Positions 16,745 to 30,022 of a DNA stretch of 64,000 bases are shown here, piece by piece. Position numbers and translations under genes: made by a program. Location: IMG/VR virus record IMGVR_UViG_3300009509_000003; one strand, written 5' to 3'. Origin of the DNA: an uncultured virus (IMG/VR IMGVR_UViG_3300009509_000003). Its lineage: Duplodnaviria > Heunggongvirae > Uroviricota > Caudoviricetes. The notes below the pieces were generated by a model. That model searched no databases and had not been told where the DNA came from. It saw only the letters and a program-made list of their open reading frames with translations. Every line of letters begins with the position of its first letter. Positions within the stretch are counted from its first letter, which is position 1.

Positions 16745-16778
16745 TTGATTTTCGAGTCCATAATGTTACCATTGACAC

Positions 16779-17279: not shown

Positions 17280-17281
17280 CC

Positions 17282-17391
17282 GAGCCGAATGCCACGAGGG
17301 ATTACATAGACTAATTGGTAAAGTCATTTCGCTATCAACGAAACATTCCGGGTTCAAGTCCCGGTGCAATCTCTCAAATATTTGTCGGCTC
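17282..17391 (+). ncRNA. Y RNA-like 2 with an embedded unpermuted cloverleaf (ATC anticodon loop)
   Basis: GAGCCGA-ATGC...TTTG-TCGGCTC stem enclosing D-arm, tttcg ctATCaa cgaaa and T-arm. Confidence 0.75.
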
Positions 17392-17395
17392 TTTC

Positions 17396-17473
17396 CCGGG
17401 CGCGGTCCAGTCTGGAGTGGACGCCTGCCTGTCACGCAGGAGATCGAGGGTTCAAATCCCTTCGCTCGGGCCA
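17396..17473 (+). tRNA. tRNA-Asp(GTC)
   Basis: cctgc ctGTCac gcagg; CCA. Confidence 0.9.
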
Positions 17474-17581
17474 AGAAGCCTACCTTAGCGATGGCCGAAG
17501 ACATCGTGTAGGTGGATTGGTTGCCTCGAAGCTAAGCGCACGGACCTTGAGCAAGTCCGGGTGGCAGAGGCAGCGCTCAAC

Positions 17582-17653
17582 GGGGCGTTAGTTCAATCGG
17601 TAGAACCGAGGACTGAAAATCCTCAAATCTCAGTTCGATTCTGAGGCGTCCCA
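17582..17653 (+). tRNA. tRNA-Phe(GAA)
   Basis: gagga ctGAAaa tcctc. Confidence 0.9.
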
Positions 17654-17655
17654 CC

Positions 17656-17721
17656 GACCGAATGCCGAAGAGATTACATCACCGCTACCCCAGGTAATAT
17701 CTCTTCAACATCTTGTCGGTC
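17656..17721 (+). ncRNA. Y RNA-like 3 (minimal)
   Basis: GACCGA-ATGC...GATTACAT...CTTG-TCGGTC. Confidence 0.7.
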
Positions 17722-17724
17722 TCT

Positions 17725-17799
17725 CGGGCTGAGGGCTTGATGGTAAGCCGCCTGGTTTGGGACCAGGAGTTTGTGTGGGTTCGACTCCCACCAGCCCGA
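17725..17799 (+). tRNA. tRNA-Pro(TGG)
   Basis: cctgg ttTGGga ccagg. Confidence 0.9.
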
Positions 17800-17903
17800 C
17801 TCTCGGTGAGCTGATACACCGGTGTAGCACAATCGGGAGTGCCTCTGTTGGTGCACCAACATACCACCGAAAAACAGTGACAGCCCGGAAAGACGGGCAA
17901 CCT

Positions 17904-17988
17904 GGCCCCCTTTCCACCTCGCCGGCTGTAACCCGGTGGCGCTATTATGGGTGGTGGCGCGCAAGCGGTTCGATTCCGTGGGGGGCCA
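17904..17988 (+). tRNA. tRNA-Tyr(GTA), atypical (no D-arm)
   Basis: ggccccc/gggggcc acceptor, gccgg ctGTAac ccggt, long variable arm. Confidence 0.65.
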
Positions 17989-17992
17989 ATCC

Positions 17993-18064
17993 GCCGACGA
18001 AGTCCTACGGTGGGACGCATGACTGTGGATCATGTCTTACTGGGTTCGACTCCCAGCGTCGGTA
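17993..18064 (+). tRNA. tRNA-His(GTG)
   Basis: catga ctGTGga tcatg; no genomic G-1/C73. Confidence 0.8.
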
Positions 18065-18068
18065 CTAC

Positions 18069-18141
18069 GATCTCGTAGTCCAAACGGAAAGGGCATCAGC
18101 CTCCTAAGCTGAGAATCTGGGTTCGAGTCCCAGCGGGATCG
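18069..18141 (+). tRNA. tRNA-Arg(CCT)
   Basis: tcagc ctCCTaa gctga. Confidence 0.9.
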
Positions 18142-18143
18142 CC

Positions 18144-18582
18144 GAAGTGTATGCGGAAGGTTGGCTTAGAAGCAGCCATCCTCTAAGGAGTGACGAGAGG
18201 TAGCCTATTACGGTTGGCGCGACCCAGGCATAGAACAGCCGCCTTCCGCTATTACCACGGGCCAGTATCCTGTGGGAGGATGGATCGGGGAACGGCGGTG
18301 TCACCTCAGGGAGTGGGACAAGCGAGACGACGTGAACAGATCAGTCGGATTTCTTCAAGCTCTCGAAAGAGGGAGGAGTTCCTACCGGCACGGTCTGTAG
18401 CGTTCGATTCGGGCTGGGTACCTAGACGTCATGGTTTGCCCGCATATTACGAGAGGAACTGCGGGTCTGATCCGGGGAGGCCCGAGAACCGGTAGGGTTG
18501 CAACTCTGGATTCGTCCAGTGAACCGGAGATGCCATGACTGGCCCTTGGAGTCTTTGGCGTAACAGCACACCCATACACTTC
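18144..18582 (+). ncRNA. Large ncRNA containing a 23S rRNA L11-binding (H43/H44) mimic
   Basis: GAAGTGTATG/CATACACTTC closing stem; GGTTGGCTTAGAAGCAGCCATCC...GCGTAACAGCACAC. Confidence 0.7.
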
Positions 18583-18584
18583 AT

Positions 18585-18658
18585 GCAGGAGTGGTCTAGT
18601 TGGCAAGGACGTCCGGCTGATAACCGGGAGGTCGCGGGTTCGAATCCCGCCTTCTGCA
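18585..18658 (+). tRNA. tRNA-Ile(GAT)
   Basis: tccgg ctGATaa ccggg. Confidence 0.9.
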
Positions 18659-18729
18659 CTAGTCTGGTAGCCTGGATATAACGACCCAGCACAGGGGATG
18701 GGGTCGGGGATACCAGGCTACTAGACTCT

Positions 18730-18802
18730 ACCTCGCTAGCATAATGGTGAATGCACCGGTCTTATAAATCGGCGATTCCCGGTTCAAGTCCGGGGCGAGG
18801 TA
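18730..18802 (+). tRNA. tRNA-Ile(TAT)
   Basis: ccggt ctTATaa atcgg. Confidence 0.85.
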
Positions 18803-18804
18803 CC

Positions 18805-18952
18805 GAAGTCTTAGTTGTTGGCTGACGGTGAGGCACGTTGGAGATGTCGGCTAGTGCCCGATACTGTCGTAAACAGCCTGCGGATTAGGGTGGCCTAGCA
18901 TCCGCATAAGCGGGTATTACGATGGCGTAGCAGACCTCACTACTAAGACTTC
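18805..18952 (+). ncRNA. Unclassified structured RNA
   Basis: 11-bp closing stem GAAGTCTTAGT/ACTAAGACTTC between two tRNAs. Confidence 0.5.
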
Positions 18953-18954
18953 CT

Positions 18955-19025
18955 GGGCGATTGGTGAAGCGGGATCACGTCAGCTCGACGCGCTGAAGTT
19001 GGGGGTTCAACTCCCTCATCGCCCA
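18955..19025 (+). tRNA. tRNA-Val(GAC)
   Basis: tcagc tcGACgc gctga. Confidence 0.85.
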
Positions 19026-19180
19026 CCGGCTTCGCACATCGGGATCGCTACCCGGCAGTGTGGAGTGATCGCTAAAACGCTGCATAGCCCCGGCAGCACA
19101 TGGAAGGGCCTCTAACCTGTCTGGCTCCTGTATCTCACCATGGAGTTAGGACCGAGATGGGCGAGGAAGGGGCGATAGTT

Positions 19181-19226
19181 GGGTCGTTAGCTCAGTTGGG
19201 AGAGCGTCGGTAGCTCAGTTGGGAGA
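19181..19226 (+). pseudogene. Duplicated 5' fragment of tRNA-Ala(GGC)
   Basis: 19181-19210 is identical to 19707-19736, followed by an extra TAGCTCAGTTGGGAGA. Confidence 0.8.
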
Positions 19227-19245
19227 TTTGTGGCATAGTTCACCT

Positions 19246-19716
19246 ATGAAGGTTATCGCACGCTACGATACAGAGGGTGAAACGTACATTCGTGTGAAGC
19301 TGGAAGACGGAAGAGTCATTCGCGAGCACCGTCATGTTATGGAGGAGCATCTTGGACGGAAATTACAACCGGAAGAGGTAGTCCACCATCTTGACGAGAA
19401 CCCGAGGAACAACAAGATCGAGAATCTTGTACTACGCAGTCGGGCTCAGCACGTGAAGGACCACAAGAATCTGGCCGAGACGGTGGAGATGGTGTGCCCT
19501 ATTTGCGGTGAGCGGTTTGAACGGACCCTTCGGTACGTTCGATCCAAACAGCGGACAGGGCAGAAGAGTTTTCTGTGCGGGAGAAGTTGCCGACTCCCAA
19601 GAGGCTCGAAACCCACCCAACACGGAACGAGAAGTGGATACCTGAAAGGGTGCCGCTGCGATGAGTGCCGCAAAGCGAACACAGAGGCTCATAGAGCCTA
19701 TAGAAGGGGTCGTTAG
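19246..19716 (+). CDS. HNH endonuclease
   Basis: EHRHVME..VVHHLDENPRNNKIENL; C-terminal GCRCDEC. Confidence 0.85.
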   Translation: MKVIARYDTEGETYIRVKLEDGRVIREHRHVMEEHLGRKLQPEEVVHHLDENPRNNKIENLVLRSRAQHVKDHKNLAETVEMVCPICGERFERTLRYVRSKQRTGQKSFLCGRSCRLPRGSKPTQHGTRSGYLKGCRCDECRKANTEAHRAYRRGR

Positions 19717-19779
19717 CTCAGTTGGGAGAGCGTCGGCATGGCTAGCCGAAGGCCGCGAGTTCGACTCTCGCACGATCCA
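19707..19779 (+). tRNA. tRNA-Ala(GGC)
   Basis: tcggc atGGCta gccga; G3:U70. Confidence 0.9.
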
Positions 19780-19781
19780 CC

Positions 19782-19850
19782 GGCCGAATGCTTGACGGGA
19801 CTACATTTTTCGTTGGAGAAAAACTCACGTCTCGTCGATCCTTGTCGGCC
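19782..19850 (+). ncRNA. Y RNA-like 4 (minimal)
   Basis: GGCCGA-ATGC...GGGACTACAT...CTTG-TCGGCC. Confidence 0.7.
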
Positions 19851-19854
19851 ATTT

Positions 19855-19927
19855 GGGGCTATAGCTCAGTTGGGAGAGCGCTACACTCGCACTGTAGAGG
19901 CCGCCAGTTCGACTCTGGCTAGCTCCA
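19855..19927 (+). tRNA. tRNA-Ala(CGC)
   Basis: ctaca ctCGCac tgtag; G3:U70. Confidence 0.9.
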
Positions 19928-20074
19928 CTGCGACGAATGCTTGTGGGGAATACATCGTTACGTGCACCAAGCCGGGAAGCGGGTGACTCCGCAACCTAGC
20001 GCGTATAGCTCAATAAGAGCACCGGGAGAAACAATCCCGGAGGTACGACTCTCCGCGCCACCTTGTCGTCGCAG
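19928..20074 (+). ncRNA. Y RNA-like 5
   Basis: CTGCGACGA-ATGC...GGAATACAT...CTTG-TCGTCGCAG; internal D-arm TAGCTCAATAAGAGC. Confidence 0.75.
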
Positions 20075-20079
20075 TTTTC

Positions 20080-20237
20080 GATCTCGTCAGGAGGTTGGCC
20101 TAGAAGCAGCCATCCTTCAAAGAGTGGCGGTCTAGCAGTACAGACCTCTGAGCTATCCCATTGCGCAAGGGACGGCGATGAAGTCCCCATAACTGTGGAA
20201 TAGGGGGCCTTTGGCGTAATAGCACACTGACGAGATC
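20080..20237 (+). ncRNA. Second 23S rRNA L11-binding-domain mimic
   Basis: GATCTCGTCAG/CTGACGAGATC stem; GGAGGTTGGCCTAGAAGCAGCCATCCTTCAAAGAGT...GCGTAATAGCACAC. Confidence 0.75.
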
Positions 20238-20240
20238 ATC

Positions 20241-20306
20241 GAGGCGAATGCTGATGGGATTACATCGCGAGAGCGTTCCACAAGGTCTCATCGATATTGT
20301 CGCCTC
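20241..20306 (+). ncRNA. Y RNA-like 6 (minimal)
   Basis: GAGGCGA-ATGC...GGGATTACAT...TTG-TCGCCTC. Confidence 0.7.
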
Positions 20307-20311
20307 ACCTT

Positions 20312-20382
20312 GGGCGCGTCGTCAAACGGGAAGACGCTGGCCTTGCAAGCCAGAGATGGGGGTTCGATTCCCCCCGTGTCCA
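20312..20382 (+). tRNA. tRNA-Ala(TGC)
   Basis: ctggc ctTGCaa gccag. Confidence 0.9.
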
Positions 20383-20384
20383 CC

Positions 20385-20492
20385 GGATCGAATGCTTGTG
20401 GGACTACATTGAAAGTTCAACTCTTTCTCGGGCCACTATTACGGCCCGATAGCCTAACTGGTAAAGGCGGGTCTCGCTCCCCTTGTCGATCC
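20385..20492 (+). ncRNA. Y RNA-like 7 (classic YrlA layout)
   Basis: GGATCGA-ATGC stem; T-arm GAAAG-TTCAACT-CTTTC, closed acceptor TCGGGCC/GGCCCGA, D-arm. Confidence 0.85.
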
Positions 20493-20495
20493 TCT

Positions 20496-20569
20496 GCCCC
20501 GAAAGAATCAATGGCGATTCGCCTCCTTGGTATGGAGGAGATTGGCGGGTTCGATTCCCGCTCGGGGCT
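20496..20569 (+). tRNA. tRNA-Thr(GGT)
   Basis: cctcc ttGGTat ggagg. Confidence 0.85.
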
Positions 20570-20571
20570 CT

Positions 20572-20696
20572 AGACCGAATGCTTGGTGGGATTACATTGG
20601 TTCAAATCCTTTACCCGCCGCCACGGGCTCTTCGGAGCCCATCTTATGGCGGGTGCCCTACGGGGGCATTTTGATCTCGCCGCTCCTTGTCGGTCT
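20572..20696 (+). ncRNA. Y RNA-like 8
   Basis: AGACCGA-ATGC...GGGATTACAT-TGGTTCAAATCC...CTTG-TCGGTCT. Confidence 0.75.
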
Positions 20697-20698
20697 TT

Positions 20699-20769
20699 GC
20701 TGGTGTCGTTCAAAGGTAGGACCCGTGGCTTCCAACCACGCGATGCCCGTTCGATTCGGGTCACCAGCA
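20699..20769 (+). tRNA. tRNA-Gly(TCC)
   Basis: cgtgg ctTCCaa ccacg. Confidence 0.9.
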
Positions 20770-20771
20770 CC

Positions 20772-20920
20772 GCCCTGAATGCTAGGATGGGAGTACATCG
20801 GCATTCAACATTTAATTGAAAGATAGTTGGTTCAACTCCAACCCGCCCCGCCGCTCGAAAGAGCTACTCATTGGGGCGGAAGCCAAACGGTAAAACGCTC
20901 TCTCCGCTTCTTGTCAGGGC
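20772..20920 (+). ncRNA. Y RNA-like 9 (immediately upstream of Ro60)
   Basis: GCCCTGA-ATGC...CTTG-TCAGGGC; T-arm GTTGG-TTCAACT-CCAAC, closed acceptor. Confidence 0.8.
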
Positions 20921-20971
20921 ACTTTCCAGAGTTTGACAGCCATGCCGCACTGTTGGCGGAAGGAGGTAGCC

Positions 20972-22573
20972 ATGGCTAACAAAGGACTATTCCAAAGCAC
21001 GCGGGGCCGGACGGTCCCGAAGACGGACGCAGTAAACGCAGCTGGAGGAGTGGCTTACTCTCTCAGCTCCAAAGCAGCGCTGGCGCGATACGCGGCTACG
21101 GGCTGTCTCTCCAACACGTACTACGTGAAGGCGGAAGACCACCTGAAGCGCGTCATCGATCTCGCAAAGGAGTGCGACTCCGAGTTCATCGCGAAACTGG
21201 CGATCTTTGCCCGCAAAGAGGGCTACATGAAGGACATGCCCGCCGTGCTCATGGCGATCCTCGCATCGCGTGGAGACGACGGCGGAGCAGCTCTGAAAGC
21301 AGCCTTCCCGCAGGTCATCGATAACGGGCGCATGCTCCGGAACTTCGTTCAGGTCATGAGGTCCGGTCAGCTCGGACGGAAGTCAATGGGCACGGGCCCT
21401 CGTAACCTCGTTCGTGGGTTCTTCGAGCGAAACGCGCCTAACTGGCTGTTCAGGCAGCTTTCCGTCGGGCAGGAGCCGTCGGGCTCGGACATCATCAAGA
21501 TGGTCCACCCGAAACCAAAAACCCCAGAACACGACGCGCTGTTCGGCTACATGATCGGGAAGACCAAGCCCGTGAGCGAGAAGTGGGGGCACATCCCGCC
21601 GCTCGTCGATCAGTTCGAGGCGTGGAAGGCGGACAAGAGCCTGCCAGCTCCCCAAGTGGACTTCCGACTGCTCACCGCTCAGCCGCTTGACGGTAAGCAG
21701 TGGGCCTCGATCTTCCGCGCGGGGCAGTGGCACTTCATCCGGATGAACCTCAACACAGCCATCCGACATGGAGCGCTCAAGGCCGATCCTGGTTTGGAGC
21801 AGTTCATCGCAGACACGCTCCGAAACAAGGAGACGATCCAGAAGGCGCGGGTCATGCCGTACCAGCTCTTCGCGGCGTACAAGCACATCACCACGGACGT
21901 TCCTCGGGAGATCGTGGAAGCCCTCCACGATGCCGTCGAAATCTCCGTGGACAACGCGCCTGTCGCCGAAGGAAGGACCCTGGTCATCGTCGACGTGTCG
22001 GGCTCCATGAGTTCGCCAGTCACGGGAGGCGGAGGTCGTACCGCGACGAAGGTTCGGTGTGTGGATGTCGCGGCGCTCTTCTCGGCTGCCATCGTGCGGA
22101 AGAACAAGAGCGCAGCAGTGCTCCCGGTGGACACCTCGGTTCACCTGGACTACAGGCCGGAGCCGCGGAACTCGGTTCTCACGGAGGCCGAGCGTCTCGG
22201 GAAATACTGCGGCGGTGGAACGGCGCTCTCGGCAGCTTTCCGGCACGCCAACCAGCGTCGGCTGAAGGTCGATCACGTGGTCATCATCTCGGACCAGGAG
22301 TCCTGGGCCGATCGGCACTACTCCTTCTACGGTGGAGACGGTACTGCGATGATGCACGAGTGGGAGGAGCTGCGCAGTCGTAACCCGAAGGCGAAGCTCG
22401 TCTGCATCGACGTTCAACCCGGCGTGACACATCAGGCCTTGGAGGGTCGTTCCGAGATCCTCCACGTGTCCGGATGGAATGACTCGGTCTTCAAGGTAAC
22501 GGCGGCCTTCCTCGGTGGCGACACCGGGTCATGGCTTGATGTCATCGAGAACATCGACCTAGCTCTCAACTGA
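20972..22573 (+). CDS. rsr: Ro60/Rsr TROVE-domain RNA-binding protein with C-terminal VWA
   Basis: VNAAGGVAY, TGCLSNTYY, RMNLNT, VDVSGSMS MIDAS; AGGAGG RBS. Confidence 0.93.
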   Translation: MANKGLFQSTRGRTVPKTDAVNAAGGVAYSLSSKAALARYAATGCLSNTYYVKAEDHLKRVIDLAKECDSEFIAKLAIFARKEGYMKDMPAVLMAILASRGDDGGAALKAAFPQVIDNGRMLRNFVQVMRSGQLGRKSMGTGPRNLVRGFFERNAPNWLFRQLSVGQEPSGSDIIKMVHPKPKTPEHDALFGYMIGKTKPVSEKWGHIPPLVDQFEAWKADKSLPAPQVDFRLLTAQPLDGKQWASIFRAGQWHFIRMNLNTAIRHGALKADPGLEQFIADTLRNKETIQKARVMPYQLFAAYKHITTDVPREIVEALHDAVEISVDNAPVAEGRTLVIVDVSGSMSSPVTGGGGRTATKVRCVDVAALFSAAIVRKNKSAAVLPVDTSVHLDYRPEPRNSVLTEAERLGKYCGGGTALSAAFRHANQRRLKVDHVVIISDQESWADRHYSFYGGDGTAMMHEWEELRSRNPKAKLVCIDVQPGVTHQALEGRSEILHVSGWNDSVFKVTAAFLGGDTGSWLDVIENIDLALN

Positions 22574-22580
22574 AACATGG

Positions 22581-22643
22581 GGCCGAATGCTGACGGGTCT
22601 ACATTATCATTATATGTGCGACTCGTTGAATCACTTGTCGGCC
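22581..22643 (+). ncRNA. Y RNA-like 10 (minimal, downstream of Ro60)
   Basis: GGCCGA-ATGC...CTACAT...CTTG-TCGGCC. Confidence 0.7.
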
Positions 22644-22697
22644 TTTCAATCTTACCCCTCATGGGGTCTCTGTCGTCCCATCGCCAGGGGCCCCTTT

Positions 22698-22769
22698 GCC
22701 GGTGAAGCCAAAGTGGTGAGGCGTCACGTTGCCAACGTGAAGAAACGGGTTCGACTCCCGTCATCGGCT
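22698..22769 (+). tRNA. tRNA-Gly(GCC)
   Basis: tcacg ttGCCaa cgtga. Confidence 0.9.
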
Positions 22770-22771
22770 CC

Positions 22772-22905
22772 GGGCTGAATGCTTAGTGGGAATACATCGC
22801 ATTCCAAGCGCGTGGTTGTTGGTTCAAGTCCAGCTCTCCCTGTATGGGGAGATAGCTCAACTGGTAGAGCACGTAAACGTCTTCTCACGCCCTTCTTGTC
22901 AGCCC
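22772..22905 (+). ncRNA. Y RNA-like 11 (complete circularly permuted cloverleaf)
   Basis: GGGCTGA-ATGC...CTTG-TCAGCCC; anticodon-like loop, T-arm, TCTCCC/GGGAGA acceptor, D-arm GCTCAACTGGTAGAGC. Confidence 0.85.
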
Positions 22906-22908
22906 TCT

Positions 22909-22932
22909 GGCCCGGTAGCCAAATGGTAAGCG
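22909..22932 (+). pseudogene. 5' fragment of a tRNA-Cys-like gene upstream of an HNH gene
   Basis: GGCCCGGTAGCCAAATGGTAAG resembles GGCCCAGTCGCCAAGTGGCAAAG at 23464. Confidence 0.55.
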
Positions 22933-22978
22933 CCTTCGGGAGCTTGCCGCTTGGCTATCAGCGCTGTACCCTGGGAAG

Positions 22979-23509
22979 ATGATTTGCGAGAAGTGTGGAG
23001 AGACGTTCCCGATCAAGGTCACGATAGATGGCAAACGTAGGAACCTGAAGAGCCGGAAATACTGTCTGGAGTGCTCCCCCTTCGGGGCGAACAACAGGCT
23101 GAAGCTGAAGCACCCTCAGACCCCGGTCGAGGATCGCGTGTGCCTTACCTGCGGTGGGGCGGTCTACAGGAAACGGAACTACTGCAACACCTGTACGTCA
23201 AGACGACGGCGTGCCCGGCTCCGGGATCGTCTGTTCGAGCTAGCTGGTGATCGGTGCGTTGTGTGCGGGTACGGCGGGAAAGACAAGTGGTGCGCTCTCG
23301 ACTTCCACCACCGCGACCCCTCCACAAAGAAGTTTGAAGTGAACGTGACGATCTCCGCCTCGATTGCCTGGGAGAAGGTGGTCGAGGAAGTCGAGAAGTG
23401 CGCGGTCTTGTGCGCCCGGTGCCACCGTGAATACCACGGAGGGCTGATACCGGACGAGCTACTGGCCCAGTCGCCAAGTGGCAAAGGCGTCGGCCTGCAA
23501 AGCCGATAA
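22979..23509 (+). CDS. HNH endonuclease with zinc fingers
   Basis: CVVCGY..ALDFHHRDP..LCARCHREYH. Confidence 0.85.
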   Translation: MICEKCGETFPIKVTIDGKRRNLKSRKYCLECSPFGANNRLKLKHPQTPVEDRVCLTCGGAVYRKRNYCNTCTSRRRRARLRDRLFELAGDRCVVCGYGGKDKWCALDFHHRDPSTKKFEVNVTISASIAWEKVVEEVEKCAVLCARCHREYHGGLIPDELLAQSPSGKGVGLQSR

Positions 23510-23536
23510 TCGCGGGTTCGAGTCCCGCCTGGGTCT
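23464..23536 (+). tRNA. tRNA-Cys(GCA)
   Basis: tcggc ctGCAaa gccga; U73; overlaps the HNH stop. Confidence 0.9.
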
Positions 23537-23592
23537 CCGAAGCGGGCGCGTCGTTTCGCGCGATAGAATCTGATAACGAGGTCCGCTTCTCC

Positions 23593-23664
23593 GCCCCCAT
23601 CGTTCAATGGATAGGACATCGGCCTTCTAAGCCGAGTATCGAGGTTCGAGTCCTCGTGGGGGCG
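23593..23664 (+). tRNA. tRNA-Arg(TCT)
   Basis: tcggc ctTCTaa gccga. Confidence 0.9.
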
Positions 23665-23667
23665 CTT

Positions 23668-23742
23668 CTCCCCGTCGTTCAATGGATAGGACCTTGGTCT
23701 TCGGAACCAATGATAGGCGTTCGAGTCGTCTCGGGGAGGCCA
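23668..23742 (+). tRNA. tRNA-Arg(TCG)
   Basis: ttggt ctTCGga accaa; CCA. Confidence 0.9.
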
Positions 23743-23783
23743 TGAGCGACAAACTCTCTTGTTGCTCATACGTGAGTGACAAC

Positions 23784-23855
23784 GCGCTCGTCGTCCAAAG
23801 GAAAGGGCACGGCCCTGCGGAGGCCGGAATCAGGGTTCGAGTCCCTGCGAGCGCT
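23784..23855 (+). tRNA. tRNA-Arg(GCG)
   Basis: cggcc ctGCGga ggccg. Confidence 0.85.
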
Positions 23856-23856
23856 T

Positions 23857-23929
23857 TGCGGGGTAGAGCAGTGGTAGCTCACTTGGCTCATAACCAAGAA
23901 GTCGAGGCGTTCAAATCCCTCCCCCGCTT
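23857..23929 (+). tRNA. tRNA-Met(CAT), initiator-like
   Basis: cttgg ctCATaa ccaag; 1:72 mismatch and fMet-like 5' end. Confidence 0.75.
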
Positions 23930-23930
23930 C

Positions 23931-23999
23931 GGCAGCGACCTATGGAAGGACCGCGCCCTCATAAGGCGTCGGGCGAGGTTTCGAGCACCTCCGTTGCCA
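23931..23999 (+). tRNA. tRNA-Met(CAT)
   Basis: cgcc ctCATaa ggcg; short D-arm. Confidence 0.7.
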
Positions 24000-24055
24000 C
24001 CTGGCCAAGACGCCTCTTCGGTAAGAGTCAGAAGGATCGTCTGACCGCCACCTCA

Positions 24056-24133
24056 CGGGCACAGGGCTTGATGGTAAGCCGCCGCGTTCGGGACGCGGAG
24101 TTTGTCGGGGTTCGACTCCCCGGTGCCCGACCA
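24056..24133 (+). tRNA. tRNA-Pro(CGG)
   Basis: ccgcg ttCGGga cgcgg; CCA. Confidence 0.9.
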
Positions 24134-24251
24134 ACGCTATAGCGGGGATTGCCACCTCCGGGGTGTTTACTCTGCGGTGCAGGCTGTGAGGACCTATTCT
24201 GCGGTGCTAGCGCGGCACAATCGTGGTCTAGGAAAGTCAGCCCGATCCTAT

Positions 24252-24322
24252 GGGATATTCGTCCAACGGAAGGGCCTCGGTCTTACACGCCGATGATGGG
24301 GGTTCGATTCCCTCATATCCCA
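24252..24322 (+). tRNA. tRNA-Val(TAC)
   Basis: tcggt ctTACac gccga. Confidence 0.9.
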
Positions 24323-24323
24323 C

Positions 24324-24460
24324 TGCCACTGTACGCTAATCGGGGCCCTTCAGTGGGCCTGGCCGCCATATCGGATCGGTGCGGCGTCCCCGACACCCGG
24401 TACGGAGGAAAAACGAGCCCCCTGAAGGGAAGATTATGGGTTAGAACCCCATCAGTGGCA
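24324..24460 (+). ncRNA. tRNA-like RNA with a large insert replacing the anticodon loop
   Basis: TGCCACTG/CAGTGGCA acceptor, CCTTCAG/CTGAAGG stem, ATGGG-TTAGAAC-CCCAT T-like arm. Confidence 0.5.
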
Positions 24461-24464
24461 CGAT

Positions 24465-24538
24465 GCCAGCGTACCCCAATCGGAAGAGGGAGCCGGCTTA
24501 GACCCGGTACAGTGTCGGTTCGAGTCCGACCGTTGGCA
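24465..24538 (+). tRNA. tRNA-Leu(TAG), short variable loop
   Basis: gccgg ctTAGac ccggt. Confidence 0.85.
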
Positions 24539-24543
24539 CTCAA

Positions 24544-24618
24544 GGCGCAGTGGGCAAATTGGTAAAGTCGTCCGGCCCAGGACCGGAAGTTTTGAGGGTT
24601 CGAGTCCCTCCTGCGCTA
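24544..24618 (+). tRNA. tRNA-Leu(CAG), short variable loop
   Basis: tccgg ccCAGga ccgga. Confidence 0.8.
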
Positions 24619-24620
24619 TT

Positions 24621-24696
24621 GGCAACGTAGCCCAATCAAGGCAGAGGCGTGTGGTCGAGGGCCACGAGGTTAGGGGTTCGAGTCCCCTCGTTGCCA
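24621..24696 (+). tRNA. tRNA-Leu(GAG), short variable loop
   Basis: tgtgg tcGAGgg ccacg. Confidence 0.8.
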
Positions 24697-24700
24697 CCGT

Positions 24701-24772
24701 GCCCGTCTAGCCCAACGCAGAGGCAATCGGCCTAAACCCGATCCAGTGCGGGTTCAAATCCCGCGACGGGTA
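24701..24772 (+). tRNA. tRNA-Leu(TAA), short variable loop
   Basis: atcgg ccTAAac ccgat. Confidence 0.8.
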
Positions 24773-24777
24773 TTTGA

Positions 24778-24850
24778 GCCACCGTAGGCCAATGGAAGAG
24801 TCACCTGGTTCAAACCCAGGGTGTTGTCGGTTCGAGTCCGACCGGTGGTA
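24778..24850 (+). tRNA. tRNA-Leu(CAA), short variable loop
   Basis: cctgg ttCAAac ccagg. Confidence 0.85.
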
Positions 24851-24884
24851 TTGTGTTTCAATGGAAGTATGATAAATTCGAGGC

Positions 24885-25490
24885 ATGAGTAAAAAAATCG
24901 AACTTGTATGCCCTGTCTGCGGAAGTGTTTTCGCGAGATATCCTTCCCAGCTAAATACCATTGGAAAGATCCGGGTGTGCAGCCGAAAATGCAGAAATGT
25001 TCTTGGAAGAGAAGCGCGTAGAGAGAGCTATGCGAGATCGTTCGAGGATCGGTTCTGGAAAAGAGTGAAAAAGTCTTCTGGATGTTGGGAGTGGCAGGGA
25101 AGCACGACCAGCGCAGGGTATGGCAGTGTAGCTCACGGTGGACGGGACTACCAAACTCATCGTGTGGCTTACGAGCTGCACTTCAACACTAAAATTCCAG
25201 ATAATCTGTATGTATTACACGAGTGCGATAACAGACGGTGCGTGCGCCCCGATCACCTACGAGTCGGAACCCACATCGATAACATGGCGGATATGCGATC
25301 TAAAGGACGATCCTCGAAAAATCGTGGCGAGCGAAACGCTAACGCGCGGCTCAGCGACATTGAGGTTGAGCAGATACGAGATCTGTACGAATCGGGCGAT
25401 TACACTCAAACAGAGCTTGCCGAGAAATTTGGTGTCGGTCAGACCCATATCAGTAGGCTCGTAAACAGGAGGATGCGATGCGAACCCTAG
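24885..25490 (+). CDS. HNH endonuclease with C-terminal HTH
   Basis: CWEWQG..HRVAYEL..VLHECDNRRCVRPDHL..NMADM; TQTELAEKFGV. Confidence 0.9.
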   Translation: MSKKIELVCPVCGSVFARYPSQLNTIGKIRVCSRKCRNVLGREARRESYARSFEDRFWKRVKKSSGCWEWQGSTTSAGYGSVAHGGRDYQTHRVAYELHFNTKIPDNLYVLHECDNRRCVRPDHLRVGTHIDNMADMRSKGRSSKNRGERNANARLSDIEVEQIRDLYESGDYTQTELAEKFGVGQTHISRLVNRRMRCEP

Positions 25491-26035
25491 TCTTAGACAT
25501 GGGGTATCAGCCCCATCGCATTGTGACCTGGCAGCGAGCCATCACAATGCTTTTCCAGAATAAATGCGAGATCATCGAGGAGTACGACGAGCCTCTGATG
25601 ACAGCCGATCAGGTCGAAAGGGCCAAGGCCTCTGGCTGGACGATCATCTTCGAGAAGATGCCCGCCGTAGTCAGGTTGCTGACCAAGGTCCAGCGCAAGA
25701 AGGCGGTTCGGTTCTCTCGGATGAATGTTCTTACCCGAGACAACTGGACCTGCCAGTACTGCGGCGTGAAGCTGACGACGCGAAAGCTGAACTACGACCA
25801 CGTAGTTCCCCGGTCGATGGGCGGCAAGACGGTGTGGGAGAACATCGTCACCTCTTGCTACGCCTGCAACGACAAGAAACGCGACCGGACGCCACAGCAA
25901 GCAGGGATGCGACTTCGGAAGCAACCCTACAAGCCGAACTCGCTTCCGGTGGTAGCTTTCCACCTCGAACCAGGGGACTCGTTGCCGGACGTGTGGCGCA
26001 GTTTTCTGTACTGGAACACCGAATTAGAAGAATAA
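25478..26035 (+). CDS. HNH endonuclease (McrA/HNH_5-like)
   Basis: RDNWTCQYCG..DHVVPRSMGG..WENIVTSCYACNDKK. Confidence 0.9.
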   Translation: MRTLVLDMGYQPHRIVTWQRAITMLFQNKCEIIEEYDEPLMTADQVERAKASGWTIIFEKMPAVVRLLTKVQRKKAVRFSRMNVLTRDNWTCQYCGVKLTTRKLNYDHVVPRSMGGKTVWENIVTSCYACNDKKRDRTPQQAGMRLRKQPYKPNSLPVVAFHLEPGDSLPDVWRSFLYWNTELEE

Positions 26036-26072
26036 GGTTCCCTTTCAAGAACTTCCTAGCTATACTGGATTT

Positions 26073-26735
26073 ATGAACCTCGTCGGTGAGAAATTCGGAA
26101 GCTGGGAAGTTCTTGAGAAAGGGCCCTCTGATAAATATTGGAACAGACGCTGGTTATGCCGGTGTCGGTGCGGGAAGCAGCAGCATGTTCTTCAAAATTC
26201 CTTAGTGTATGGTCATTCGCTAAGTTGCTGCTCGTGCGCAAACAAAAAGACGGCGAAAGAGCGCGGAAAAGCGAATACCACTCACGGGCGATCCTCTGAG
26301 CAAGTCTACAAGGTGTGGACGCAAATGATTCAACGGTGCACCAACCCGAACGACACTGCCTACCCGGAGTATGGTGGGCGCGGAATAACAGTCCATGAAG
26401 ACTGGATCGGTCGTGGAGGATTCGAGCGGTTCATCGAGCACATTGGAAAACGCCCTTCTGATCAGCACACAGTTGATCGCATCGACAACAACGGTAACTA
26501 TGAGCCCGGAAACGTTAGGTGGGCGACATCCTCTGAGCAGGCTCGAAACACACGGAGGAGCCGAGTGATAGAGTTTGACGGAGAGCGACTCACACTAGCA
26601 GAGTGGGCAGAGAGAACTGGCATGAAGCGAGAAACTATTGCGCGTCGGCTCAACTTAGCGTGGTCATCGGAAAGGGCTCTCACCGAACCCGTACACCGAT
26701 CCATCTACTGGCACGGTGAGCTAGAGCATGATTGA
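26073..26735 (+). CDS. Phage HNH-type endonuclease
   Basis: MIQRCTNP..YGGRGITV..DRIDNNGNYEPGNVRWAT; paralog of 55188-55844. Confidence 0.85.
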   Translation: MNLVGEKFGSWEVLEKGPSDKYWNRRWLCRCRCGKQQHVLQNSLVYGHSLSCCSCANKKTAKERGKANTTHGRSSEQVYKVWTQMIQRCTNPNDTAYPEYGGRGITVHEDWIGRGGFERFIEHIGKRPSDQHTVDRIDNNGNYEPGNVRWATSSEQARNTRRSRVIEFDGERLTLAEWAERTGMKRETIARRLNLAWSSERALTEPVHRSIYWHGELEHD

Positions 26736-26898
26736 TTCCGCTCACTATCGCTGCTGCAAATGCGGCCACGAGTGGGAGCAGCCGCCGGCTCAGGTTACTT
26801 GCCCCAAATGCAGCCACGAATACGTCAAGTGGGTCAACTACGAGGCGTGGCGTGAGCGCAATCCGCTAGAAGAGGAGGTCCCCATGGTGACCAAATGA
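26728..26898 (+). CDS. Small zinc-ribbon protein
   Basis: Hand translation YRCCKCGHEW..TCPKCSH; overlaps the upstream gene end. Confidence 0.6.
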   Translation: MIDSAHYRCCKCGHEWEQPPAQVTCPKCSHEYVKWVNYEAWRERNPLEEEVPMVTK

Positions 26899-26910
26899 AA
26901 GGAGGTCTTC

Positions 26911-27117
26911 GTGGGAAAGCCTCAGAAGTGGAAGCGCGGTCGTCCAAAATCTGGTCGAGCCGGGTGCCTCATGTGAAAGCCTCACAAGCGTCAAGGCGTT
27001 GACGCTCCGAAGCAAGCCGAAAAGGCGGCCCGGATCGATGAGAAGGAACAGCTCGAAGACCTGCCCTCAGACGCTCACGGGCGACTGAAGAGGGCAGATC
27101 CTAGACGCTGGACATGA
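26911..27117 (+). CDS. Small basic protein with in-frame TGA (candidate CxxU selenoprotein)
   Basis: AAGGAGGT RBS; GCLM-TGA-KPHK followed by a perfect 8-bp hairpin. Confidence 0.5.
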
Positions 27118-27196
27118 AAGCTCCCCCGGAAGCCTCGGCGACCGGGTGCTCCCCCTCCCGGGGAAGCGTTTTCGCGGGGGTAGCTCCCCCGCACTT

Positions 27197-27273
27197 CGGG
27201 CGGAGGGCTTGATGGTAAGCCGCCTGACTGGGGGTCAGGAGTTGTGCGGGTTCGACTCCCGCTCGCCCGACCA
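27197..27273 (+). tRNA. tRNA-Pro(GGG)
   Basis: cctga ctGGGgg tcagg; CCA. Confidence 0.9.
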
Positions 27274-27354
27274 GCGGATAGTGGTGAACCGACGGTGGTC
27301 CGTCGGCCACTAAAGTGAAGGCGCGCAGGGTTTGATTCCCCACTGCTATCCGCG
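27274..27354 (+). ncRNA. tRNA-like RNA with extended acceptor and D stems, no proper anticodon arm
   Basis: GCGGATAGTGG/CTGCTATCCGC; CCGACGG-TGGT-CCGTCGG; GGG-TTTGATT-CCC. Confidence 0.45.
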
Positions 27355-27356
27355 AT

Positions 27357-27437
27357 GGAGAGAGAACTCGGTGGGACCGGGACCTGGTTTGAAACCAGAG
27401 GGAGCGAAAGCTTGGGGATCGTGCCCTCCTCTCTCCG
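27357..27437 (+). tRNA. tRNA-Ser(TGA), 8/4 fold
   Basis: GGAGAGAG/CTCTCTCC 8-bp acceptor, 4-bp T-stem, variable arm, G73. Confidence 0.8.
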
Positions 27438-27455
27438 CCGTGTTATAGAGCACAC

Positions 27456-27598
27456 GAGTATCCGATCGAGGTGCCGGGACTGAGCAATGACATGGCGTCT
27501 GAGCGTTCATGGCAGTGCCATGTGTAGGTTGCCGGTGGGAGAGTGGGTGGCGAAAGCCGTATCCTAGGCACGCGGCGAGTAGGGTAGATCGGATACTC
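27456..27598 (+). ncRNA. Unclassified structured RNA
   Basis: 12-bp closing stem GAGTATCCGATC/GATCGGATACTC. Confidence 0.5.
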
Positions 27599-27601
27599 AC
27601 T

Positions 27602-27682
27602 GGAAGGTGAACTGGTCAGGGACCAGGCTCGGTTGGAAGCCGATGCGCTCGCAAGGGTGGTGTTCGAGTCGCCCGCCTTCCG
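27602..27682 (+). tRNA. tRNA-Ser(GGA), 8/4 fold
   Basis: tcgg ttGGAag ccga; 8-bp acceptor. Confidence 0.8.
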
Positions 27683-27690
27683 CGAAGTTT

Positions 27691-27779
27691 GGCAGAGGAA
27701 CCGTACAGGGGTACGGGCTCGCCTCGAAAGCGATGCGCTCGGTGATGAGCTGGGTGGGGATCATGCCCTCCCTCTGCCG
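27691..27779 (+). tRNA. tRNA-Ser(CGA), 8/4 fold
   Basis: tcgc ctCGAaa gcga; GGCAGAGG/CCTCTGCC. Confidence 0.8.
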
Positions 27780-27923
27780 CCGAAGGAGAGTCAACACGAT
27801 CCGGAGTGGTGAGGAAACTGGGTAATCGGGGAGATGGCCACCTCGTACATCCCGCTCGGCCCATACCGGCGATGAGACATAAAGGGTTGACTCAGGAGCG
27901 GGTGACGAGGGAACCGCTCCAAT

Positions 27924-28011
27924 GGCGAGTGAACCAGACAGGGGTCTGGGCCTGCCTGCTAAGCAGTGCGCTCGGGGCAACCTGGGTGTGGATCAAGACC
28001 ACCGCTCGCCG
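27924..28011 (+). tRNA. tRNA-Ser(GCT), 8/4 fold
   Basis: ctgc ctGCTaa gcag; 8-bp acceptor, GTGG/CCAC T-stem. Confidence 0.8.
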
Positions 28012-28027
28012 CCGAAAGGAGATTGCT

Positions 28028-28252
28028 ATGAAACCGACGTGGAAGCACGACTGCGATGCTTGCGAGTTCCTCGGAATGTTCGATAAGCACGATCTGTATT
28101 ACTGCAGCTCGACTATGCTGCCTACGATCATCGCTAGGTTCGGTTCCGACGGACCTGAATACAAGAGTGGCATGGCGTTCAAGGACGCCGACAAGCACCT
28201 TCGAGAAGCCTATAGACGCGCAGCAGCAAAAGGCCTAGTCAACGCAGCGTAG
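28028..28252 (+). CDS. Small hypothetical protein
   Basis: AAAGGAG RBS; HDCDAC..DLYYC. Confidence 0.65.
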   Translation: MKPTWKHDCDACEFLGMFDKHDLYYCSSTMLPTIIARFGSDGPEYKSGMAFKDADKHLREAYRRAAAKGLVNAA

Positions 28253-28346
28253 TCTCGGCCCCATCTTCTAGAGTCCTATCTCTACGCGTATATGGAAAAG
28301 ACGGTGTATGGAAAGTTCGCGGTCTCACAGAGGAGGCTCATAAAAT

Positions 28347-28418
28347 GGCGCTGTCGTCTATCGGTAGGACACCTCGCTCTCACCGAGGAAAGGGAGGGTT
28401 CGATTCCCCTCAGCGTCA
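28347..28418 (+). tRNA. tRNA-Glu(CTC)
   Basis: cctcg ctCTCac cgagg. Confidence 0.88.
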
Positions 28419-28499
28419 CTGACTCGTGATGGCGGGTTCAAGTCCCCCTGGGGTCATTGGGGTAGCACCACAAACAAAGATGCTCAGTTGTCGCAGTTT

Positions 28500-28575
28500 G
28501 CCCCCGAGGTCCCAATGGAGGGACGCCTGTTTCGTAATCAGGAAGTGGCCGGTTCGATCCCGGCCGGGGGCTCCA
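28500..28575 (+). tRNA. tRNA-Thr(CGT)
   Basis: cctgt ttCGTaa tcagg; CCA. Confidence 0.85.
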
Positions 28576-28775
28576 TGGCTCGATCGAGGAAGAACTACGC
28601 TTCGATGAAGGGAGGGGATCTTCCAAAGGTTCGCTACCCGCTGATCACGTTCGACATGGAACGGGGAAAAGTGGGGTGGGCTCATTGGCGCCGCTCGAAG
28701 AAGAGAGCCACGTCTCGCTATGAGCGACATGTAGTGGCGAAACAGATCGTGCGGGAGCAGTTGGATGAACTGTGA
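28575..28775 (+). CDS. Small basic hypothetical protein
   Basis: ATG overlaps the tRNA CCA end; coupled to the next ORF. Confidence 0.45.
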   Translation: MARSRKNYASMKGGDLPKVRYPLITFDMERGKVGWAHWRRSKKRATSRYERHVVAKQIVREQLDEL

Positions 28776-29034
28776 GACTTGCGACGTTCTTCGAGACTTC
28801 CCCAACGACCCTCCTTGCTGGAAGGGGATGACGTGGGATGTGTACTGGGACGAAGAGAGCTACAGCTCAACGACGATCGGCCACAGCGACGATCGACCGT
28901 CCGTGATAGAAGAGAGCGCGGTCCTGCTCGGCACCTTCGAGGCTGAGTGCTGGGCCGACATGAAGGTGAAATCGGAGGAATTTGTAGACAAGGTTCGCCT
29001 GCGAAGCGTAAATGGTGACGCGCCGGTTTTGTAA
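28765..29034 (+). CDS. Hypothetical protein
   Basis: 89 aa; 3' end overlaps tRNA-Thr. Confidence 0.5.
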   Translation: MNCETCDVLRDFPNDPPCWKGMTWDVYWDEESYSSTTIGHSDDRPSVIEESAVLLGTFEAECWADMKVKSEEFVDKVRLRSVNGDAPVL

Positions 29035-29068
29035 TCCGGAGAACTCGGTTCGATTCCGAGCGTGGGCT
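28997..29068 (+). tRNA. tRNA-Thr(TGT)
   Basis: ccggt ttTGTaa tccgg. Confidence 0.85.
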
Positions 29069-29071
29069 TAT

Positions 29072-29144
29072 GGCTCCGTCATCTAAAGGTTAGGAGATCG
29101 GCCTTTCAAGCCGATGATGCTGGGTTCGAGTCCCGCCGGAGTCA
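29072..29144 (+). tRNA. tRNA-Glu(TTC)
   Basis: tcggc ctTTCaa gccga. Confidence 0.88.
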
Positions 29145-29570
29145 CTAGGGTTGAGGCCAGCCGGCCTTGCGGTATTCCTCGAACTCTTCGTCCGAGATGA
29201 TCGAGGTGATGGTGGAGCGGTGGATGTCGCCGTACTCACCTTCAGAGCAGAGCGTCGAGTAGAATCGGCCGAAGCAGAAGCTTTCCGACCACTCCCCCGC
29301 GTAGCGCTGGCAGACGTAGTTGAACTCGGCCTGCTCCTCGGGCTGGGTCAGGTCGTAATGCGGCCTCTCGGCCTCGATGGGGTCGATGATCTCGCCGTAG
29401 ATGAGTAGGAGTCTGCGCAGGGGCCCTGCGTTCATCTCGGCCAGCCGGATGACCTTGTCCCCGGGCTTGACCTCCCGCTGCCAGTCCTCGATGCGAGCGT
29501 CGGCTCGCCGCTGGTTCTCGCGGAGTGTCTCCTGCAGCTCCTCCATGGAGTCGAAGAATTGCACTGTCAT
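29145..29570 (-). CDS. Hypothetical protein
   Basis: Coupled to the upstream kinase. Confidence 0.65.
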   Translation of the reverse strand: MTVQFFDSMEELQETLRENQRRADARIEDWQREVKPGDKVIRLAEMNAGPLRRLLLIYGEIIDPIEAERPHYDLTQPEEQAEFNYVCQRYAGEWSESFCFGRFYSTLCSEGEYGDIHRSTITSIISDEEFEEYRKAGWPQP

Positions 29571-29992
29571 GTCGTCACCACCTCTTCCTCGCCCCAGAAT
29601 GGCAGGGGCTCTTCCATGCGCTCGTGCATGGCCTGGACAGCCGCATCAGGCACGCTGTGGGTGTTCCGAGCAGCCGCCTTCTCGGGATCGCACTCGAACC
29701 GGATGATCCGCACCGGCACACCATGCTTGTTCGCGAGCATGATGTACGGGGACATCTCCCAGCGCTGCGTGTTGGTGTTGTCCACCACCACGAGCTTTCC
29801 GGCACCGAGGGCCCCGTCGACCTTGCAGAAGCAGGCAACGTGGGCCTCGGTGAGACGGGTGAAGTCGAAATTGTACTCTCCGGTCGGAGTCGTGAATGTG
29901 TCGTCGGCGCTGGCGATGATCGCGGTTGGGAATTCCCTCTTTGCGAAAGTGGTCTTACCAGCCCCACTTACGCCTCTCAGTATTACTAGCAT
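29567..29992 (-). CDS. P-loop polynucleotide-kinase-like protein (AAA_33)
   Basis: LRGVSGAGKTT, SADD, VVVDNTN, RNTHSVP. Confidence 0.85.
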   Translation of the reverse strand: MLVILRGVSGAGKTTFAKREFPTAIIASADDTFTTPTGEYNFDFTRLTEAHVACFCKVDGALGAGKLVVVDNTNTQRWEMSPYIMLANKHGVPVRIIRFECDPEKAAARNTHSVPDAAVQAMHERMEEPLPFWGEEEVVTT

Positions 29993-30022
29993 CTCTACCC
30001 TCCATTCTCCAAGACGCTTGTC

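Follow-up and report, generated by a model that had tools for sequence, protein, structure and literature searches.

The window analyzed here is a stretch of 64,000 nucleotides from an uncultured virus of the Caudoviricetes (IMG/VR record IMGVR_UViG_3300009509_000003). It contains a small gene on the plus strand in which a TGA codon lies in frame, well ahead of the terminal stop codon. The coding sequence (CDS; 26911..27117, +) begins with GTG and encodes a small basic protein of 68 residues, in which the in-frame UGA is codon 22. The gene reads VGKPQKWKRGRPKSGRAGCLM, followed by the TGA (26974..26976, +), 46 open codons (KPHKRQGVDAPKQAEKAARIDEKEQLEDLPSDAHGRLKRADPRRWT), and a second, ordinary TGA stop (27115..27117, +). 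A Shine-Dalgarno sequence, AAGGAGGT, is located at 26899..26906 (+), 4 nt 5' of the GTG start; in related genes an AGGAGGA box precedes ATG, GTG, or TTG starts. The in-frame UGA, which we propose to be a selenocysteine (Sec) codon, is the last codon of a CxxU motif (TGC CTC ATG TGA, C-L-M-U; 26965..26976, +) that aligns with the invariant C-L-x-C of the protein family to which the product belongs.

Ten nucleotides past the TGA, a perfectly paired hairpin resembling a selenocysteine insertion sequence (SECIS) spans 26987..27006 (+). Its DNA reads AGCGTCAA-GGCG-TTGACGCT; in the RNA, an 8-bp stem (AGCGUCAA/UUGACGCU) encloses the loop GGCG, which starts at +21 from the U of the UGA, and the span from the UGA to the end of the stem is 33 nt. 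An initial annotation of this DNA had described the ribosome-binding site, the TGA at 26974, the 46 open codons behind it, and the perfect hairpin at 26987-27006. All of these were found where it had placed them, and the methionine with which it began the protein corresponds to the GTG at 26911.

The protein family and its cysteine forms

For the family search, the TGA was read as a residue, and the product was run against a collection of viral contigs (viral_contigs), followed by an alignment-based scan. The first search returned three homologues, in which the similarity was continuous across the TGA. The alignment-based scan found 69 viral-contig loci, and the codon aligned with the TGA encodes cysteine (Cys; TGC or TGT) in 69/69. 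Both cysteine positions of GCLxCK are Cys in 69/69 of these loci, and the TGA aligns with the second Cys of the CxxC motif. Forty more loci came from a second scan, made with the closest Cys form; 39 of them carry CxxC, and in the fortieth the motif was not located. The initial annotation had proposed a search with U changed to C, to see whether homologues carry Cys or TGA at this codon, and had counted an end of homology at the TGA against its reading. The viral-contig homologues carry Cys, and the similarity crosses the TGA. Its reading of the protein as the Sec form of a family of small CxxCKPHK proteins is supported by these Cys homologues and by the recurrence of the TGA described below.

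The CDS aligns over its full length with Cys-form and TGA-form relatives. The family consists of small, basic phage proteins, mostly 43-76 residues long, with the consensus MNHKRKRPKNxRAGCLMCKPHKxNG. In a 60-sequence alignment (A2), the invariant columns are K, R, P, K, R, G, C, L, C, K, and K. The two cysteines among them (C16 and C19 in the numbering of L004, the first sequence of A2) are the only invariant cysteines of the family. The protein encoded in the window matches the family pattern KRxxPKxxRxGCLxCKxxK with K8, R9, P12, K13, R16, G18, C19, L20, U22, K23, and K26, and thus has the expected residue in all invariant columns save for U in place of the second C.

No model for the family was found in Pfam, PHROG, or NCBIfam. 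Among 1.84 billion cluster representatives, HMMER identified 104 members at E <= 0.001, and a search of the protein atlas with the Cys form P0003 returned only "hypothetical protein" clusters, most of them viral.

Recurrence of the in-frame TGA and selection on the reading frame

We scanned viral_contigs, genome_contigs, and metagenome_contigs for the DNA pattern P-K-x4-G-C-x-x-TGA-K-P-x-K. The metagenome contigs yielded 27 loci, which comprise 12 family members with an in-frame TGA and 15 chance matches. All 12 family loci have an open frame of family-typical length past the TGA. Eight of them form a clade with the window (L078, L081 (= L103), L082, L086 (= L100), L099, and L101); these correspond to six distinct sequences, one of them partial, or to seven when the window is included. 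A typical member of this clade reads SKPRKWKRGKPKSGRAGCLM-TGA-KPHKRQGVDAPPISERLARIDEREQLEELPADLHGPL. The other four (L085, L093, L096, and L097) are more distant and read MANHKR...GCLL-TGA-KPHK..., with 27-52 open codons past the TGA. Cys forms also occur close to the clade: P0009 reads CKPHKRQGVDAP, and P0011 combines the head of the clade, MGKPRKWKRGRPKS, with CLLC. The DNA for P0009, which has the same KPHKRQGVDAP as the window, was not found in viral_contigs.

The TGA is therefore recurrent, and it is conserved: all of the close relatives keep it, although most of their synonymous sites are changed with respect to the window. For the selection test we used the window and the five full-length relatives from its clade, six sequences in all. 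The pooled proportion of synonymous differences (pS) reaches 0.80 before the TGA and 0.60 after it, so that synonymous sites are near saturation, and the corresponding proportion of non-synonymous differences (pN) is 0.14 upstream and 0.20 downstream. Over the 37 codons past the TGA, pairwise ratios of non-synonymous to synonymous divergence (dN/dS) range from 0.08 to 0.35, and the frame past the TGA contains zero insertions or deletions (indels) and zero stops. The low pN and the absence of indels and stops indicate that the part past the TGA is translated in frame and contiguously with the part before it. Judging from this substitution pattern, the frame past the TGA is under purifying selection, and a pseudogene is ruled out for the clade.

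One protein in the database, P0079 (35 residues), is a gene call restricted to the post-TGA part of another member of the clade. It illustrates how genes of this kind are lost in annotation, as gene callers miss the full reading.

Occurrence of the TGA in public sequencing runs

The stretch is present in 20 public runs from seven studies, which sampled marine sediment, estuary, mangrove, and soil metagenomes; no RNA run was found among these 20. Contigs from four of the runs were compared over 26400-27700. Runs X1 and X14 each have one contig that is identical to the window over this interval, and both are possible sources of this DNA. Run X20 belongs to another study and is not flagged as a source; it has an 80-nt contig over 26910-26989 with zero differences, at a depth of 2. 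In run X16, no contig extends across 26789-27195, and the gene is uncovered. A sequencing error had been named in the initial annotation as a matter to be checked; the contigs of three runs read TGA and not TGC at this codon. We conclude that the TGA is real and not an assembly slip, chiefly because the relatives, 12 further family loci, carry the same TGA.

Run X20 also contains a second strain, which has 26909-26939 in common with the first and differs from it on both sides. In this strain, TAG rather than TGA closes the upstream gene, and RPKSGRAGCL is encoded with synonymous changes; its sequence was read only to 6 nt before the critical codon. The two strains represent micro-diversity of the phage inside one sample.

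A conserved hairpin downstream of the UGA

All six clade sequences conserve AAG CGT CAA GGY NTT GAC GCY at the position of the hairpin. The stem is identical in five of the six and one pair shorter (7 bp) in L086; variation within the hairpin is confined to loop positions 3-4 (GGCG, GGTC, and GGTG) and to the outermost pair. The codons of conserved residues are invariant in four of five cases in the stem versus two of 27 elsewhere in the gene (Fisher p = 0.002). For example, the Arg in the stem is always encoded by CGT, whereas another conserved Arg uses five different codons within the clade. When the window peptide was recoded synonymously with the codon usage of the window, an 8-bp stem at this place arose in 11 of 20000 recodings. 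L001, the closest Cys form for which DNA is available, encodes the same KRQGVD through other codons and forms no hairpin, as judged by eye. The hairpin is thus conserved at synonymous sites, a constraint which indicates that it is under selection as RNA.

The TGA and Cys forms were also compared with respect to RNA structure. A stem with at least 6 contiguous pairs and a loop 16-30 nt from the codon is present in seven of 10 TGA forms versus two of 63 Cys forms. The median minimum free energy (MFE) of the segment from +8 to +50 is -11.0 kcal/mol for the TGA forms versus -6.9 kcal/mol for the Cys forms (Mann-Whitney p = 0.002), with a G+C content of 0.58 in the TGA set versus 0.52 in the Cys set and with six clade members that are kin and, therefore, non-independent. 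Outside the clade, the hairpin of L096 (GGCTAAC-GGG-GTTGGCC) has a 7-bp stem of unrelated sequence, and its loop also starts at +21. The hairpins were judged by our own criteria. The possibility that the hairpin is a terminator was considered and rejected; no terminator-like or promoter-like site was found in 26500-27400.

The geometry of the hairpin is that of the SECIS in Escherichia coli K-12 fdhF (UGA140), the formate dehydrogenase H gene and the standard example of Sec insertion by SelB in bacteria, in which the TGA is followed by 11 nt and by GGTTGCA-GGTC-TGCACC, with the loop starting at +21. As in fdhF, the hairpin of the window and its clade lies within the CDS and has a 4-nt, GG-initial loop at +21; in L081 and L101 this loop is GGUC. 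The G and U of the GGUC loop are the SelB contacts. The two differ in that the stem in the window is a perfect 8-bp helix with no bulged U, and in that the proteins are unrelated: Sec would be located in the CxxU motif of a 68-residue phage protein and not at a molybdenum site. The fdhF SECIS, too, is read as codons, for residues 141-153 (PMC4513850, excerpt).

Stop codon usage and tRNAs in the window

Among 100 non-overlapping candidate open reading frames (ORFs) in the window, TGA is the stop codon of 43, TAG of 37, and TAA of 20; the ORFs of 663, 546, and 448 residues all end in TGA. Of the six clade copies of the CxxU gene, three terminate with TGA and three with TAA. In the former, UGA is read in two ways within one gene, and the reading depends on local context, as it does with a SECIS.

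ARAGORN with default settings identified 40 tRNAs between 15.9 and 29.1 kb of the window. The initial annotation had seen no tRNA-Sec in the window, and we agree: no tRNA with a UCA anticodon was found among these 40 or in a relaxed scan of 15001-30000. A match to the tRNA-Sec model at 27277-27350 (24.4 bits, cut-off 47) was rejected, as it has no anticodon arm and no UCA. Matches to the same model in the relatives are tRNA-Ser genes, as judged by eye. Two Cys-form phage records in which we sought Sec machinery gave only sub-threshold tRNA cross-matches.

The rejected match belongs to a tRNA-like element of 74 nt (27277-27351, +) located between tRNA-Pro(GGG) and tRNA-Ser(UGA). This element has an acceptor stem of 9-10 bp and a T arm but no proper anticodon arm; its D stem of 6-7 bp carries a UGGU loop like that of tRNA-Sec. 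The relaxed ARAGORN scan calls it a poor tRNA with the anticodon CUA. In L101, tRNA-Ser(UGA) directly follows tRNA-Pro, with no tRNA-like element between them. The element may represent a tRNA mimic or a suppressor tRNA that has decayed. Three tRNA-Ser genes with the anticodons UGA, CGA, and GCU (27357-27439, 27691-27781, and 27929-28010, all +) were found only by the relaxed scan and were missed at default settings. These added genes match the order Pro, Ser, Ser, Ser, Ser in L101, and the array therefore has more than 40 tRNAs.

Proposed mechanism and alternative explanations

We consider it probable that the UGA at 26974 is recoded as selenocysteine by a mechanism of the SelB/SECIS type, resulting in a CxxU protein made with the machinery of the host. 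The phage and its close kin have UGA as the second Cys codon of the CxxC motif, and the hairpin 10 nt downstream would act as a bacterial-type SECIS. Host SelB with Sec-tRNASec would bind the GGNN loop as the ribosome reaches the UGA and deliver Sec, thereby producing the CxxU protein, whereas ribosomes that miss the signal would terminate and release a 21-residue peptide. Because no Sec machinery was found in the window, the phage would depend on a Sec-using host. The binding of SelB, the identity of the inserted residue, and the competence of the host we infer from sequence. The same interpretation had been offered in the initial annotation; the Cys homologues, the recurrent TGA, the purifying selection, the frozen hairpin, and the fdhF-like spacing lend it support.

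Several observations weigh against this interpretation. The pattern scan found 0 family members among four matches in viral_contigs and 0 among six matches in genome_contigs. The four distant TGA members are known from one contig each and may be nonsense mutants or errors. The comparison of runs was made with assembled contigs, not raw reads. No selA, selB, or selD was found among the 100 window ORFs, nor was a tRNA-Sec. With respect to the hairpin, 362 of 2000 recodings fold as well as the window between +8 and +50, so that its MFE is not extreme. The stem is invariant within the clade and therefore provides no compensatory covariation, and the six sequences are related and are not independent trials. 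Counted by lineage, a strong hairpin at +21 is present in two of five TGA lineages (the clade and L096). L085 and L097 instead fold into two-part hairpins of about -11 kcal/mol, whose apical loops lie farther 3' (at about +34 in L097, by eye), and L093 reaches only -3.8 kcal/mol. A search of Rfam gave no family that matches the hairpin, and no SECIS family at E <= 1 (26000-29500) or at E <= 10 (26940-27060); this null result carries little weight because bacterial SECIS elements, which are stem-loops immediately 3' of the UGA, are heterogeneous (PMC12013277, excerpt). Finally, the evidence in cis, a UGA at a Cys codon and a hairpin at +21, fits the insertion of Cys equally well.

Insertion of this kind would be SECIS-dependent and would use a host tRNAReC (selC*), which decodes UGA as Cys with a downstream SECIS (PMC13582414, excerpt, citing Vargas-Rodriguez et al. 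2018); the result would be a normal CxxC protein, synthesized in an unusual way. However, tRNAReC was reported in only a minority of the genomes surveyed, about 13-17% of the Sec- and Cys-type ones (PMC13582414, excerpt), the common partner of a SECIS is the canonical tRNASec, and no tRNAReC-type tRNA was found in the window. Nothing obvious is gained by a detour that ends in Cys again, yet the TGA has been kept across saturated synonymous divergence, and we regard this route as quite improbable. Leaky readthrough of the UGA by a normal tRNA for Trp or Cys, aided by the hairpin, would yield mostly the 21-residue peptide, with the longer protein at a set ratio and without selenium. The phage has its own tRNA-Trp(CCA) and tRNA-Cys(GCA), no Sec machinery was found in the window, and three of the five TGA lineages are without a canonical hairpin, all of which would suit readthrough. 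In every case found, however, the UGA is located exactly on the invariant Cys, where Trp would remove one of the two cysteines, and readthrough needs neither the fdhF-like spacing nor a GG-initial loop. Readthrough thus appears unlikely.

That the TGA arose as a nonsense change from TGC or as a sequencing mistake, with the hairpin as a by-product of the RQGVD codons, is highly improbable. It is true that TGC and TGA are one step apart, that RQGVD is prone to forming a partial hairpin (45% of recodings reach a stem score of at least 4.5), and that the region is nearly unchanged across many runs, so that the runs are not independent. Nevertheless, six distinct relatives at a pS of 0.5-0.8 all keep the TGA, an indel-free frame (pN 0.20), and the exact stem, and the contigs of three runs agree. 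A pseudogene or error is, therefore, contradicted for the close clade and possible only for the four distant TGA members. A code in which TGA is sense everywhere (code 4/25 type), or a general UGA suppressor tRNA in the phage, is barely credible. The window has 40 or more tRNAs, and stop codon reassignment is known in phages, with TAG read as Gln (PMC9523058, excerpt). The stop usage in the window contradicts a changed code: TGA is the commonest stop (43 of 100 ORFs, including the longest), and it ends this gene in three of six clade members. In addition, no UCA tRNA was found even with relaxed settings, and Trp or Gly at an invariant Cys would be implausible.

If the UGA is indeed decoded as Sec, the UGA and its SECIS might further serve as a switch in a native phage selenoprotein family, which would sense the selenium status or SelB capacity of the host from within the tRNA array. 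At low selenium or SelB, translation would stop and give the 21-residue basic N-terminal peptide; at high levels the full CxxU protein would be made. We consider such a switch conceivable, though doubtful. Were it true, this would be the first use of the 21st amino acid by a bacteriophage, with a host range tied to Sec-competent bacteria, and the sensing would be located in the tRNA array, the region that reshapes host translation.

Comparison with known systems

The gene resembles bacterial selenoproteins with CxxU or UxxC motifs in that the TGA aligns with a Cys of CxxC, conservation is found on both sides of it, and a stem-loop lies immediately downstream. Surveys of selenoproteomes rely on this signature of TGA/Cys alignment and stem-loop (PMC9312934 and PMC12013277, excerpts). 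Unlike the catalogued CxxU/UxxC selenoproteins, the phage protein has no family model, its predicted structure consists of a tail and a long helix, and its family is mainly viral.

The selenoproteins of poxviruses, which are glutathione peroxidases of molluscum contagiosum virus and fowlpox virus, likewise are products of viral genes that depend on the Sec machinery of the host, a dependence that we propose here for the phage. In fowlpox, the SECIS is also located in the coding region (PMC8310308, excerpt). The poxvirus proteins, however, are captured cellular enzymes with a eukaryotic SECIS, whereas the gene described here is a phage gene with a bacterial-type SECIS and belongs to a phage-native family. 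The gene also shares with stop-codon-recoded phages, which reassign TAG or TGA throughout the genome by means of suppressor tRNAs, the need to read an in-frame stop as sense, but it differs from them in that a single codon in a single gene is concerned, with a local RNA signal and no suppressor tRNA.

The mechanism that we propose is the usual one of bacteria, and the novelty lies in the phage carrier and the protein family. We found no report of a phage selenoprotein in the full-text literature, in a search that did not cover subscription journals. In the excerpt consulted of a 2021 review of viral recoding, only two poxviruses are named as having acquired a selenoprotein gene (PMC8310308). 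The terms "phage" and "virus" are absent from a 2022 review of prokaryotic selenoproteins (PMC9312934), and "phage" does not occur in the excerpt consulted of a 2026 review of the prokaryotic selenoproteome. On the evidence from the gene and its relatives, the window very probably contains a phage-encoded selenoprotein. If confirmed, it would mean that phages can hijack the UGA recoding of their hosts for a protein family of their own. The gene would then also provide a simple sequence marker for Sec use by the hosts of these phages from sediment, estuary, mangrove, and soil, as well as a very compact natural SECIS context with a family of Cys forms as a control.

Predicted structure of the protein

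For the closest Cys form, an AlphaFold model calculated with the 60-sequence alignment has a mean predicted local distance difference test score (pLDDT) of 73.7. In this model the N-terminal 30 residues are without regular structure and bear the CxxC motif and the basic segment KRGRPK, which we take to resemble an AT-hook. One long helix extends over residues 32-67, with pLDDT > 90 for residues 31-50; there is no thioredoxin fold. The His that follows the motif varies, being H, N, or W in the Cys forms and H, Y, or F in the clade. Because the family has only two invariant cysteines and this His is variable, one chain alone cannot build a metal site with four ligands. We tentatively suggest that the protein may be a nucleic-acid-binding peptide in which two chains would share a metal through their CxxC/U pairs, a possibility to be treated with caution; alternatively, the motif might form a redox link between two chains.

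Genomic neighborhood

The gene is located on the plus strand within the large tRNA array, which is interspersed with genes for HNH endonucleases. Upstream lies a separate gene in the same frame, an ORF for a 56-residue zinc-ribbon protein (26728..26898, +) that ends in TGA; in the relatives, the upstream region likewise contains an HNH gene and a small ORF of the CxxC...CxxC type. Directly 3' of the CxxU gene is tRNA-Pro(GGG) (27197..27273, +), in a neighborhood that is conserved in the relatives: tRNA-Pro(GGG) also follows the gene in L082, L086, and L101, and tRNA-Leu genes precede it in L082, L086, L099, and L100. The order in the clade is tRNA-Leu ... zinc-ribbon ORF, HNH gene, CxxU gene, and tRNA-Pro(GGG).

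Between tRNA-Leu(CAA) and the CxxU gene, the window has three successive HNH-type endonuclease genes (201, 185, and 220 residues; 24885-26735, +). L082, L086, L099, and L101 each have a single HNH gene, a homologue of the one at 25478-26035, and two of the HNH genes thus appear to have been inserted in the phage of the window.

A tRNA or transfer-messenger RNA (tmRNA) was found within 1.5 kb of the family gene in 16 of 60 Cys-form loci (L004-L063) and in six of 12 TGA-form loci, in addition to the window. In three of these Cys-form loci (L028, L034, and L059), a phage tmRNA adjoins the family gene. Genes of the family are thus often embedded in phage tRNA or tmRNA arrays, with which they share the strand. 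These associations hint at a role of the family in connection with translation or tRNA genes.

Elsewhere, the 64-kb window has the appearance of a large and poorly characterized phage that encodes, among others, a peptide deformylase, a uracil-DNA glycosylase (UDG), a DNA methylase, and a Ro60-like protein; many of its ORFs have no family. Known phages gave no DNA match to the region beyond an 86-nt stretch in a Vibrio phage. The Ro60-like protein (546 residues; 20933-22573, +) is encoded inside the tRNA array and matches Pfam vWA_Ro60 and PHROG 850, "RNA-binding protein". Bacterial and phage Ro60 proteins are usually accompanied by Y-RNA-like partners. The window also encodes a HAD domain of the type found in "Swiss Army Knife" RNA-repair proteins (Pfam HAD_SAK_2, E 9e-32; 61279-61764, -), and the peptide deformylase (E 3e-44) is located at 11718-12377 (-). 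These two, along with the Ro60-like protein and the tRNA array, point to a heavy investment of the phage in RNA and translation.

Eleven other CxxU/UxxC candidates are present in the window, most of which are apparently on the non-coding strand of long ORFs. Among the chance matches in the pattern scans, L073-L076, L080, L084, L092, and L098 represent one conserved element, which is about 90% alike between loci and unrelated to the family. This element is found in freshwater-type viral and metagenome contigs.

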